Source: an uncultured Muribaculaceae bacterium (GTDB lineage: Bacteria; Bacillota_I; Bacilli_A; RF39; UBA660). From it: a stretch of 53,462 nucleotides of DNA. Where the stretch lies: the NCBI GenBank assembly GCA_964368535.1, contig CAYJBC010000002.1, positions 3,294 through 56,755 on the forward strand, read 5' to 3'. Positions 50,421 to 53,462 of the stretch are shown here, piece by piece; positions within the stretch are counted from its first letter, which is position 1, and every line of letters starts with the position of its first letter. The notes beneath the pieces are model-generated. The model was not told where the DNA came from, ran no database searches, and worked only from the letters and a program-made list of their open reading frames with translations. The position numbers and the translations under genes were made by a program.

Positions 50421-50849
50421 ATGTACGAAGAATTTCCTAAGAGACCAATTAATATTAAAATACTATTACTTAAAATAGGTATTATTGCAGTTGTAGCTAT
50501 ACTTATTATAATTATTTTTAGAACTACTACTATTAATACTGCTCCACTAAGTGAAAATGCTATAAAATTAAAAGATAATTTAGAGTTAGTAAGCGATGCT
50601 TCGGTTAAATATTTTGAAACTGAAAAATTGCCAGAAAAGCTTAATGAAAGTATTAAAGTAAATATTGATGTATTGATCGATAACGAATATCTTACTGATT
50701 TTGAATATGATTTAGATGAATGCATTATAAAAGATAGTTATGTTACATTAACTAATGTTAAAGATAATAACTACAATTTAAAAACTACTTTATCTTGTGA
50801 TGATTTAACAGATTATATAATTGAAACAATTAAAATTGAAGACAAATAA
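50421..50849 (+). CDS. Hypothetical N-terminally anchored protein
   Basis: 142 aa with one TM (ILLLKIGIIAVVAILIIIIF). The ectodomain has VLIDNEYLTDF, reminiscent of LIEANYLVAD in the pilin-like 38409..38777. SD GAGAGGAG. Confidence 0.5.
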   Translation: MYEEFPKRPINIKILLLKIGIIAVVAILIIIIFRTTTINTAPLSENAIKLKDNLELVSDASVKYFETEKLPEKLNESIKVNIDVLIDNEYLTDFEYDLDECIIKDSYVTLTNVKDNNYNLKTTLSCDDLTDYIIETIKIEDK

Positions 50850-50877
50850 AAAATGAACCATTAAGTTCATTTTTTTA
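50848..50877. terminator. Bidirectional terminator
   Basis: A-run, ATGAAC-cattaa-GTTCAT, T7. Confidence 0.6.
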
Positions 50878-50882
50878 TTTGT

Positions 50883-51317
50883 TTATTCGCTTGCTGGTGA
50901 ACTCATTGTTGACCATTCAACACTTCCACATTCACCAGTTGAAGTTACAGATCCATCTTCGTTAGTAGTATAACAATGATTAAAAGCAGCTTCTTCACAT
51001 CCACTTGGTGATGATAGACAACTTGAACATACTACGAAGTCATCTTTAACATCTCCATTGAAATTATCGATAATATTAAATACTACATTTACGATTGTTG
51101 GTATAAAGAATATTATAATACCTGCGATAAATCTTCTCATTAATGAACCAGTAGCTTTTTTAATTTCTTTTTCATCACTTGATACTACAGCTTTACCTAA
51201 ATCTATAGCTCCCATTATAATTATAATTACTGGTATTACTATTTTAAATATAGTTAAAATATCTCCGACTAAATTCCAAATTGACCAAGTTTCTGCACAA
51301 AATGCTAATGTTAACAT
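50883..51317 (-). CDS. Small two-TM membrane protein with Cys-rich tail, tandem paralogue A (VirB2/TrbC-like topology)
   Basis: 144 aa. TM1 IFKIVIPVIIIIMGAID, charged loop LGKAVVSSDEKEIKKATGSLMRR, TM2 FIAGIIIFFIPTIVNVVF, tail CSSCLSSPSGCEEAAFNHC...C. SD AGAGAGAG. Confidence 0.6.
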   Translation of the reverse strand: MLTLAFCAETWSIWNLVGDILTIFKIVIPVIIIIMGAIDLGKAVVSSDEKEIKKATGSLMRRFIAGIIIFFIPTIVNVVFNIIDNFNGDVKDDFVVCSSCLSSPSGCEEAAFNHCYTTNEDGSVTSTGECGSVEWSTMSSPASE

Positions 51318-51327
51318 AAAATCACTC
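51072..51327 (-). repeat. Copy A of a ~256-nt direct repeat (5' UTR end plus N-terminal coding half of the paralogue pair)
   Basis: Aligns without gaps to 51613..51868 at a constant 541-nt offset. I counted 13 mismatches by hand. Similarity collapses 3' of the repeat, in the C-terminal coding halves. Confidence 0.8.
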
Positions 51328-51395
51328 TCTCTTTTCTATAATAATATTTTAATATAGTTATATATTAATAGTCAATAATAAAATGTAAAGTTTAC

Positions 51396-51419
51396 AAAAA
51401 AAAAGAACTAAAAGTTCTT
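51396..51419 (-). terminator. Intrinsic terminator between the tandem paralogues
   Basis: AAGAAC-tttta-GTTCTT followed by T9 on the minus RNA, overlapping the stop of 51418..51858. Confidence 0.6.
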
Positions 51420-51858
51420 ATTCTGCATCTGGGAATAATACATCTTTATCCATACATGGGTCAGTTCCAGTTTCACCCTCTGTTGTTAAAGTACTTTTTC
51501 CTTCTGAATCATATGCACAAAATGTTTCAGCTTCTGTTTCACATCCACTTGGTGATGCTACACACGAAGAACATATAGTGTAATCACTTCTTACTTCTCC
51601 AAAGTTATCTAAAATATTAAATACTACATTTACGATTGTAGGTATAAAGAATATTATAATACCTGCGATAAATCTTCTCATTAATGAGCTTGTTGCTTTC
51701 TTAATTTCTTTTTCATCACTTGATACTACAGCTTTACCTAAATCTATAGCTCCCATTATAATTATAATTACTGGTATTACTATTTTAAATATAGTTAAAA
51801 TATCTCCGATTAATTTCCATATTGACCATGTATCTGCGCAAAATGCTAACGTTAACAT
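51418..51858 (-). CDS. Small two-TM membrane protein with Cys-rich tail, tandem paralogue B
   Basis: 146 aa. The first ~85 aa are nearly identical to paralogue A. Tail CSSCVASPSGCETEAETFC...PC diverges after the CSSC..SPSGCE block. Confidence 0.6.
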   Translation of the reverse strand: MLTLAFCADTWSIWKLIGDILTIFKIVIPVIIIIMGAIDLGKAVVSSDEKEIKKATSSLMRRFIAGIIIFFIPTIVNVVFNILDNFGEVRSDYTICSSCVASPSGCETEAETFCAYDSEGKSTLTTEGETGTDPCMDKDVLFPDAE

Positions 51859-51868
51859 AAAATCACTC
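51613..51868 (-). repeat. Copy B of the ~256-nt direct repeat
   Basis: See copy A (51072..51327). Confidence 0.8.
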
Positions 51869-51911
51869 CTTTTTCTATTTATATTTTATAAAATATTTAT
51901 ACTTAAGTCAA

Positions 51912-52907
51912 CTAAAATATACCAAAAACGCCTTTACTTTCATCTTTTTCACTTAATCTAGTAAATCCTAGTGAAATAAGCAATGATGTTATTACTGGAT
52001 CTTTATCCATTTTATCATCTAAGTTTGGTATATTTGCAAAAATTTTACTACCAGATTCTCTTTCAAAATCTGTTACATCTTTACTTGTAAGTGAACTACG
52101 GTTAAGTATAATTTTTTCGTTTTTTATTTTATCAAATATTTTATTATCCGCTTTAATTAATTTATTAAGTTTAATAATACCTGGCTCAATTAAATACAAA
52201 GTTTCTGAGTTTACTAACCCTTGTGAATTATTTAAATCAACTATTATTATTTCTTTATCACTATTGTTTGCAATATATGAGTTTATATTATCAGAAGTTG
52301 TAAATTCTAAATCCTTATCTGAAAAATACATAAAATCATTAGTATCTAATTCAACGCATTTTACTGTGTAATGTTTTGATAAATGCATCTTTAACATATA
52401 AGCAAGAGTTGTGCTTCCAGCATGTGTAGTTAAATTTTTAATACCTATAACTCTTTGACCAATAAACCCTTTTGTATTATCTACTTTGGTATTTAATTTA
52501 ATTTCTTTTTCTGTTTCAATAGTTGCATTTAACTGTTGATAACTTGCTACATCCTTATATGAATTAGGATTATCAATTAAAAATGTAACTACATCTGGTT
52601 TCTTAGTAAAATTATATATTCCCATTGAAACTAATTGAGATAAATATTTAGGTGAATTTACAGTTTCAGAATCATCTAATAACAATATTACTTTCGACAT
52701 ATCAAAGTTAAGCGATATTTCTTGTATCACATTAATATTTTCATAATCCTTAATAGCCGTTACATCTATAATCATTTTGTTATAGAAAAAATGTGTAAAT
52801 TGATTAACTAATTCTGAAACTTCAAATACACCATTTATACTTTTAATTACATCTATATTAAGTGTTCCTAAAAGTGATTGATATTTATTCGATATTATTA
52901 CATTCAT
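51912..52907 (-). CDS. TadZ/CpaE-like protein: receiver-like N-terminal domain plus degenerate ParA/MinD-type ATPase domain
   Basis: 331 aa. The central VIGIKNLTTHAGSTTLAYMLKMHL occupies the deviant Walker A position (GxxGGxGxTTLA) but lacks the GKT/GGxG residues. IIIVDLN sits at the Walker B position. The N-terminal ~120 aa have an alternating beta/alpha pattern (IIDVTA, ILLLDD). Confidence 0.35.
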   Translation of the reverse strand: MNVIISNKYQSLLGTLNIDVIKSINGVFEVSELVNQFTHFFYNKMIIDVTAIKDYENINVIQEISLNFDMSKVILLLDDSETVNSPKYLSQLVSMGIYNFTKKPDVVTFLIDNPNSYKDVASYQQLNATIETEKEIKLNTKVDNTKGFIGQRVIGIKNLTTHAGSTTLAYMLKMHLSKHYTVKCVELDTNDFMYFSDKDLEFTTSDNINSYIANNSDKEIIIVDLNNSQGLVNSETLYLIEPGIIKLNKLIKADNKIFDKIKNEKIILNRSSLTSKDVTDFERESGSKIFANIPNLDDKMDKDPVITSLLISLGFTRLSEKDESKGVFGIF

Positions 52908-52919
52908 TTTAATTCTCCT

Positions 52920-53384
52920 TTATTTTAATCTATTAGATTCAGCAATGACAATTACCTGGTTAGTGCTTCCTTTAATATCAAAAGTCATTAAGTTGTTTAT
53001 TACAGGTAAATTAAATTTATAAAACAATATTATTTCAAAAATTCCTTCATCTTCTTTTATACAGTAGTAGTACGAAGTGTTATCTGTAACTTTAGTTACA
53101 GTTGTTCCATCTAAATCACTTACTCCGTAATACGATTTTTCACCTTCTGCTGCGACTGGACATGATCCTCTAGTATTATAACCTTCTGAAGATAACAAAT
53201 TACTTACTATCTCTTGGCTAGTAGTAGAAAAACCTTCATATTCTTCAACTATTGATATAATATCATTTCTTATTCTAAATGCATCTGTGTAATTTAAAGT
53301 TAATATTAAAAAAGCTGCAAATAGCATGATAAAAATTACTATTAAACCAAAAGTCCACGTTGTTCCTTGTGCTTCTCTCATCAT
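52920..53384 (-). CDS. Hypothetical membrane-anchored protein (TadE/pseudopilin-like topology)
   Basis: 154 aa. MMREAQGTTWTFGLIVIFIMLFAAFLILTL is a short polar head followed by one hydrophobic helix. No canonical G|xxxxE pilin motif. Confidence 0.3.
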   Translation of the reverse strand: MMREAQGTTWTFGLIVIFIMLFAAFLILTLNYTDAFRIRNDIISIVEEYEGFSTTSQEIVSNLLSSEGYNTRGSCPVAAEGEKSYYGVSDLDGTTVTKVTDNTSYYYCIKEDEGIFEIILFYKFNLPVINNLMTFDIKGSTNQVIVIAESNRLK

Positions 53385-53390
53385 TTCACC

Positions 53391-53462
53391 TTAGCTTTCA
53401 CAACCATTTAATACTTTAGTTTCACCAGTTACATCAAAATTAAAAAATGTTTTTAATACTGG
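53391..53462 (-). CDS. C-terminal fragment of an upstream gene (start beyond right edge)
   Basis: Hand translation of the reverse complement gives PVLKTFFNFDVTGETKVLNGCES, then TAA at 53393-53391, 6 nt before the next start codon. Confidence 0.4.
   Translation of the reverse strand, partial: PVLKTFFNFDVTGETKVLNGCES

Follow-up and report, generated by a model that had tools for sequence, protein, structure and literature searches.

Arrays of VirB2-like pilin genes adjoin the gene for VirB4 in Patescibacteria, and the members of these arrays average 25% identity (PMC12102498 / 10.1101/2025.01.22.634366). The secretion classes of Gram-positive bacteria are said to be without major pilin genes (PMC12102498). 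Here we describe a tandem pair of genes for small VirB2-like hairpin proteins, copy A and copy B, in a 53,462-nt stretch of DNA (the window) from an uncultured gut bacterium of the Bacilli (GCA_964368535.1). The host genome (G000) is a metagenome-assembled genome (MAG) of 111 contigs that is 90% complete, and the window reaches the end of its contig C2. Like the PF18895 arrays of Patescibacteria, genes of this kind are tandem or arrayed, varying paralogs, which in many relatives of the host lie near a chromosomal, VirB4-centered, single-membrane secretion system that resembles mating-pair formation class FATA (MPF-FATA), in a lineage with small genomes. The pair differs from those arrays in that its host belongs to the gut Bacilli, and its subfamily is leaderless, has four near-invariant Cys and occupies the border with a Tad-like operon. 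Furthermore, unlike the members of the patescibacterial arrays, copies A and B are 93% identical over their core through gene conversion. The pair is therefore an extension of a recently recognized kind of gene and founds no new one.

Three other systems bear comparison. With the classical VirB2/TrbC pilins (PF04956; Agrobacterium T-pilus, RP4) the window's proteins share a layout of two hydrophobic helices around a short basic loop that is predicted to be cytoplasmic, with the ends outside. In the classical pilins the ends are tied by cyclization, whereas in the window's proteins they are probably tied by disulfides. Unlike the classical proteins, copies A and B have no PF04956 match and no long signal peptide, belong to a single-membrane host and carry an added Cys-rich acidic tail. 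The tandem VirB2 paralogs of Anaplasma and Bartonella are likewise duplicated pilin genes that differ in their exposed parts and are thought to vary the surface (PMC12102498). These organisms are double-membrane intracellular pathogens, and the text consulted claims no core-homogenizing conversion tract for them (PMC12102498). Finally, the likeness to Tad/Flp (type IVc) pili is one of adjacency alone. The pair closes an operon of T2SSE ATPase, TadB/C-, RcpC/CpaB- and TadZ-like genes and short-leader pilins, but its products are hairpins of another family, without a prepilin leader or a single N-terminal helix.

What the window adds is a sharply bounded conversion tract. The VirB2-like family itself belongs to the core genome throughout a family of uncultured gut Bacilli with small genomes, in which it lies between a Tad-like pilus operon and a chromosomal secretion system. 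Our preferred reading, to which we assign a probability of about 0.6, is that the tandem genes encode leaderless, Cys-braced VirB2-like hairpins which would serve as a surface-exposed subunit or stalk of a secretion apparatus, with a core kept alike by conversion while the tails drift.

Two copies of a PF18895 hairpin protein

Both genes lie on the minus strand. The upstream gene, copy B (51418..51858, 146 aa), encodes a VirB2-like hairpin protein of PF18895 that has no leader and carries six Cys in its putative outer part; the downstream gene, copy A (50883..51317, 144 aa), encodes a paralog with a similar core and a different tail. The two proteins are 80% identical across 123 aa (BLASTP, E = 1e-53). 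An earlier analysis of the sequence (the original prediction) had reported a shared block of 256 nt with 13 mismatches and no indels at an offset of 541 nt, and comparison of 51072..51327 with the same range shifted by 541 nt returned precisely these values. Random 256-nt pairs drawn from the window (27% G+C) set the chance level at a mean identity of 31% and a maximum of 42%. The repeat block runs from the ribosome-binding site to about codon 85, and beyond this point the nucleotide identity drops to about 54%.

The original prediction also recognized a layout like that of VirB2/TrbC pilins in these proteins without being able to place the family. This layout is borne out by profile searches with PF18895 (T4SS_pilin, VirB2-like), a profile of 71 positions with a gathering cutoff of 26.6 bits. 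Both copies score above this cutoff (copy A: 30.0 bits, copy B: 32.3 bits) over profile positions 4–71 of 71. A word-indexed search produced 256 relatives of 104–168 aa, and of the best 120 among them 113 match PF18895 as well (E ≤ 0.01), while six also match CagC. Judged by these profile matches, the family is PF18895, and it is VirB2-like.

The PF18895 profile is short and hydrophobic, our scores exceed its cutoff by just 3–6 bits, and the profile weakly matches 11 of 14 control genomes. These facts would suit an explanation in which the score reflects transmembrane composition and the gene product is some other small membrane protein, be it holin-like, a bacteriocin or immunity protein, prepilin-peptidase-like or a regulatory hairpin. 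We consider this explanation improbable, since paralogs with the same module occur inside VirB4 clusters and since the searches for such proteins returned nothing meaningful. Neither copy matched a holin profile, PADLOC gave no match, and PHROGs gave a single unannotated match with E = 0.015. The holin or phage and the defense or toxin-immunity readings were therefore dropped, and with them the suggestion of a toxin-immunity-like module in the original prediction. The loop motif GAIDLGK is faintly similar to the GxGD box of A24 prepilin peptidases, which is a further point for the other-protein explanation. This candidate was also rejected because the copies do not match PF01478 and have only two helices where an A24 peptidase would have at least four and two catalytic Asp, and because the loop Asp is variable, being replaced by Ser in P0111. 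True A24 peptidase genes, coding for 250–270 aa, turned up in 11 of 12 relatives from the genus; no PF01478 gene was found in the 90% complete G000, which is likely a gap in the assembly. The copies also differ from Flp/Tad and type IV pilins, as the N-terminus MLTLAFCA(E/D)TW contains neither a Gly-based cleavage motif nor a single N-terminal helix.

The subfamily has a core of about 105 aa that consists of a short N-terminus (F-C), helix 1 (FKIVIP), a loop, helix 2 (FFIPT) and the motif DY.VC-x2-C-x3-P-x2-C. The loop sequence DLGKAVVSS(D/K)E.EIKKA is almost invariant across the subfamily, and the loop contains six Lys or Arg residues, whereas the tail is strongly acidic. In an alignment of 24 sequences C7, C96, C99 and C106 (copy B numbering) and the loop are invariant; in an alignment of 120 sequences C7 and C96 remain invariant and C99 is nearly so. 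The element CSSC..SPSGCE, which had been singled out as common to both copies, is indeed present in each, and its three Cys are conserved in the family: invariant in the smaller alignment, invariant or nearly so in the larger. The shortest members stop at the last core Cys, and copies A and B each carry about 40 extra acidic residues with two more Cys. Of 114 members, 104 have an even number of Cys.

An AlphaFold2 (AF2) model of copy B, computed from the 120-sequence alignment, has a mean predicted local distance difference test (pLDDT) score of 80.8. It shows helices at residues 11–46, 49–82, 87–101 and 103–113, of which the first two form a hairpin with a pLDDT near 90 and the last two are short and lie toward the putative outer side. 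Even Cys counts, a basic loop and an acidic tail point to a topology in which the basic loop would be cytoplasmic, and the N-terminus with Cys7 and the acidic, Cys-rich C-terminal part would be outside with exposed disulfides. The Cys pattern suggests that two or three such disulfides staple both ends of the protein. The exposed tail of the original prediction is consistent with how the charges are distributed and with the even numbers of Cys, while the topology itself is what we infer from these sequence features.

A gene-conversion tract between the copies

The tandem pair occurs in just two of 13 genomes of the genus, G000 and the sister species G012 (GCA_964371705.1, locus L009/L131). In the alignment of these four genes, each informative site groups the copies either by genome or by position. 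Between 84 nt before the start codon and coding nt 30, grouping is by position at 13 sites and by genome at none. Between nt 60 and nt 246 the pattern is reversed, with 17 sites by genome and none by position, and by-position sites resume from nt 255. For the tract as a whole (nt 50–246) compared with its near flanks, the ratio of by-genome to by-position sites is 17:0 versus 1:18 (Fisher p ~ 2e-8). In copy B the tract covers 51613..51809 on the minus strand and comprises the first transmembrane helix, the loop and the second transmembrane helix, with the by-position sites at nt 30 and nt 255 as its bounds; the same site-pattern analysis places the tract of copy A at 51072..51268 on the minus strand. 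Copies A and B are 97% identical over the tract, including a run of about 100 nt without any difference.

Other comparisons reveal the same division. In a maximum-likelihood tree of the tract the upstream and downstream copies of G000 group together with 92% support and those of G012 with 83%. The loop reads SSDEKEIKKA in both copies of one species and SSKEDEIKKA in both copies of the other. Synonymous divergence (dS) in the N-terminal half is 0.22 and 0.23 between paralogs and 0.51 and 0.57 between positional orthologs. Nucleotide identity in the C-terminal half, in contrast, is 64% and 62% between orthologs and 54% between paralogs in both cases. The tails pair by position, and so do an indel of 3 nt and the 5' flanks; the duplication is therefore older than the split between the G000 and G012 species. 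The derived states shared within each genome are beyond the reach of purifying selection and require conversion of about 200 nt. This indicates that the core with both helices and the loop was converted after the species had separated. The original prediction had left the choice between recent duplication and gene conversion open; the copies agree by genome in nt 50–246 and by position in the flanks and tails, which supports conversion and does not support plain duplication.

A plain recent duplication, in which the two halves remained alike through purifying selection on the membrane core and no conversion took place, would draw on the strong constraint on this core and on its high conservation throughout the family. 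The ratio of nonsynonymous to synonymous divergence (dN/dS), computed separately for each half, is 0.11–0.13 for the core, which confirms the proposed purifying selection on the membrane part. With this explanation we would nevertheless expect neither paralog dS values that are less than half of those between positional orthologs, nor 17 tract sites shared within genomes and none by position next to 5' flanks that show the opposite. We regard plain duplication as very improbable. More improbable still is an assembly artifact, by which near-identical repeats would have been collapsed or chimerized. The fragmentation of G000 into 111 contigs and the identical run of about 100 nt within the tract could invite such an error, but the same architecture is found in two independent assemblies of two species, each species has substitutions of its own that both of its copies share, 6–19 differences remain between copies, and the unique flanks are collinear with those of relatives.

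The tails have evolved rapidly, with dN/dS values of 0.47 and 0.73 between orthologs. In this respect the diversification proposed in the original prediction holds as fast evolution. The value between paralogs is about 1.2, but with a short alignment and synonymous sites close to saturation none of these values establishes positive selection.

Pairs in other genera have cores that are just 49–60% identical, and strong homogenization is therefore particular to the pair in the window. A locus from a buffalo-rumen relative (L023:9642-11065) contains adjacent members of 119 and 158 aa with an 88% identical core and 57% identity in the tail, and may represent a second, independent case of core homogenization.

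The gene was thus duplicated in the common ancestor of the two sister species, and since their split recombination between the copies, which are 541 nt apart, has repeatedly overwritten about 200 nt. The part presumed to fit the machine thereby stays alike in both copies, while tails and promoter regions, which the tract does not reach, diverge. The conversion tract shows which part must stay, namely both helices and the predicted cytoplasmic loop, and which parts are free to vary, namely the promoter region and the predicted outer tail. Its boundaries can guide mutagenesis and modeling of the assembly interface. This pattern suggests that the lineage, which may rely on contact with other cells, tolerates or even favors variation at its surface.

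Genomic setting and the partner machine

We surveyed the distribution of the system with one genome per genus from the host's family (61 genera). The hairpin gene is present in 61 of 61 genera, VirB4 in 57 (62–77% identity, mostly single copy) and a TadZ-like gene in 55. The carriers of the hairpin gene are recorded as uncultured gut Bacilli or 'Tenericutes', as Candidatus Coprovivens, and as CAG:460 and CAG:609 bins; genome sizes in the lineage are 0.8–1.3 Mb. In a sample of 101 genomes from the class the profile matched all seven other genomes of the host family and one genome each in two other families, and was unmatched in 21 further families. Given this distribution, the system is a vertically inherited core feature of the lineage and no mobile element.

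The setting of the gene was compared over about 80 loci (L numbers) from species-representative genomes. The full operon in these relatives begins with genes for a large Cys-rich protein, DUF5411, an RcpC/CpaB-like protein, a T2SSE ATPase and two TadB/C-like proteins. It continues with two or three small Cys-rich pilins with an MKEAxG leader, two minor pilins, a TadZ-like gene and the hairpin gene or genes. In about 50 of the 80 loci the hairpin gene is directly 3' of the TadZ-like gene, and in eight (L015, L016, L017, L026, L056, L069, L090, L093) it directly follows the TadC-like gene. These eight loci are without the pilin, minor-pilin and TadZ block, and an AddAB-like helicase-nuclease pair comes next.

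At many loci the hairpin gene is followed by two to six genes for longer proteins (150–580 aa) which contain a homologous hairpin as their C-terminal part. Behind this array, as in L095–L098, come an Amidase_3 cell-wall hydrolase, a protein of about 740–790 aa, another of about 102 aa that weakly matches PrgI, then a TraC-like protein and finally the VirB4-like ATPase. This array-linked cluster constitutes a single-membrane type IV secretion system. In L095 and L096 the hairpin gene heads the secretion cluster itself, with a pyruvate kinase gene upstream and no Tad operon. The TadZ-like gene, the hairpin gene and VirB4 are all on one contig in G042, G043, G046, G047 and G063, and in several genomes these three genes fall within about 10 kb.

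In our preferred reading the pair is part of a secretion apparatus. Each gene would be transcribed from its own sigma-70-like promoter. The product would form a helical hairpin in the membrane, with the almost invariant basic loop DLGKAVVSS-DEKE-IKKA...RR toward the cytoplasm. On the outside would be the short N-terminus, which holds Cys7, and the acidic C-terminal part with C-x2-C-x6-C and a variable tail that has two more Cys. Disulfides would staple the two ends, akin to the head-to-tail cyclization of some conjugative pilins. In this bacterial family the gene usually lies where a conserved Tad-like pilus operon meets a conserved, chromosomal, single-membrane type IV secretion system. The latter comprises a VirB4-like ATPase, proteins resembling PrgI/VirB3 and TraC, a large protein with multiple membrane spans, a cell-wall hydrolase and the hairpin-bearing array. 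The hairpin protein is most likely a surface-exposed subunit or membrane stalk of this secretion apparatus, although both its polymerization and this choice of partner are what we infer from the setting and the family.

Several observations weigh against this reading. Classical VirB2/TrbC proteins have a signal peptide, and copies A and B have none: only 6–9 codons are open 5' of the ATG, so that both proteins are leaderless. Profile searches with PF04956 (TrbC/VirB2) found no match for either copy at E ≤ 1. A profile search of the PDB sequences yielded only chance matches to ion channels and G-protein-coupled receptors (E > 0.3), and a Foldseek comparison of the AF2 model with the PDB returned nothing below E = 4.7, so that neither search confirms the pilin fold; the lack of fold matches can be explained by the little fold information that a helical hairpin holds. 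The conversion test comprises four genes from two genomes. A maximum-likelihood tree of the tails supports the upstream pair with 55% and the downstream pair with 61%, so that orthology by position is weakly supported in this tree because the region is short. Finally, in the genus of the window the secretion cluster is separate (about 14–24 kb off or on other contigs) and has its own signal-peptide-bearing family member, while the pair or single hairpin gene stays by the Tad-like operon; in G000 VirB4 is on contig C39. As the genus keeps the leaderless gene with the Tad-like operon and the secretion cluster elsewhere, the identity of the partner machine is uncertain.

This last arrangement speaks for an alternative in which the hairpin protein would be dedicated to the Tad-like pilus machine, serving it in the membrane as an anchor, an assembly factor or a stator, for example, and would be a distant relative of VirB2-like pilins instead of a secretion-system subunit. 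The position right behind the TadZ-like gene in about 50 of 80 loci is in line with this explanation, as are the eight loci of the L015 group, where the gene directly follows the TadC-like gene without a pilin/TadZ block. We consider it unlikely, because the proteins pass the PF18895 cutoff and because array proteins inside the secretion cluster end in the same hairpin module. In addition, the gene in L095/L096 heads the secretion cluster behind pyruvate kinase instead of a Tad operon, and the hairpin protein is without a class III (prepilin) leader whereas the pilins of the operon have MKEAxG. A more far-reaching idea is that in this family of gut Bacilli with reduced genomes the Tad-like pilus and the chromosomal single-membrane secretion genes form one conserved composite contact apparatus, with the leaderless, disulfide-stapled hairpin protein between them as its exposed filament or stalk subunit. 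Tandem copies, alike in a core guarded by conversion but free in their tails, would then give one machine alternative surfaces. This is speculative and we hold it doubtful; if true, the apparatus would parallel, on the Gram-positive side, the pilin arrays of epibiotic Patescibacteria.

Expression signals and neighboring genes

All signals described for the pair are on the minus strand. Both copies have the Shine-Dalgarno (SD) sequence that had been predicted for each, in the form of an SD-like GAG-rich stretch 7–8 nt 5' of the ATG. Promoter-like sites precede copy B (51883..51911, TTGACT-17-TAAAAT) and copy A (51346..51375, TTGACT-18-TAAAAT), and the TTGAC of these sites is kept in all four genes of the two pair-bearing species. 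Copy B is followed by a weak, A/U-rich hairpin of 7 bp with a U9 run (51396..51419; −4.7 to −6.5 kcal/mol), a possible leaky terminator. Because this hairpin is indistinguishable from shuffled sequence (z = −1.3), the claim that the upstream copy has its own terminator is not established. A strong 12-bp hairpin between A and U runs (50848..50875; −11.1 kcal/mol, z = −5.8) is a bidirectional terminator common to copy A and a convergent gene. The plus-strand open reading frames at 51058-51357 (99 aa) and 51456-51578 (40 aa) are antisense frames over the A/T-rich hairpin genes and have no support.

Directly 5' of the pair is a TadZ/CpaE-like gene (51912..52907, minus strand, 331 aa), the last gene of the Tad-like operon, which shares 74% identity with the gene of 330 aa found in front of the hairpin gene or genes of relatives. 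It is preceded by a minor-pilin-like gene (52920..53384, minus strand, 154 aa) with the leader M(K/R)E(A/V)xG that is common to the pilins of this operon. The operon occupies 51912-53462 of the window and continues on G000:C19:1-10900 (reverse). The contig break falls within a minor-pilin gene, whose 3' end is at 53388-53462; C19 opens with the 5' end of this gene. All three small and both minor pilins of the operon have the unusual short leader M(K/R)E(A/V)xG, and they are Cys-rich too. On the other side of the pair, a convergent gene (50421..50849, plus strand) encodes a membrane-anchored protein of 142 aa without a family match. As a homolog is found 3' of the hairpin gene or genes in about 20 of 82 loci, this protein may belong to the same system.

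The remainder of the chromosomal secretion cluster of this genome is on G000:C39:1-7435. It contains genes for a PrgI-like fragment of 75+ aa, a TraC-like protein of 188 aa and a VirB4-like protein of 595 aa (AAA_10, 50.6 bits), followed by genes for 558, 294 and 725 aa. The product of the last is coupling-protein-like, with the Walker A sequence GSTGSGKTE and a long Pro/Asn/Gly-rich tail. A third family member (G000:C30:12594-12904, plus strand), cut by the contig end, has a normal Sec signal peptide (MKKKHLNYLLVTIIGLFSFINVNA). Past the predicted cleavage site this paralog resembles the start of the leaderless proteins (...TTIDIC versus MLTLAFC). A fourth hairpin-like match is found at G000:C4:38002-38178.

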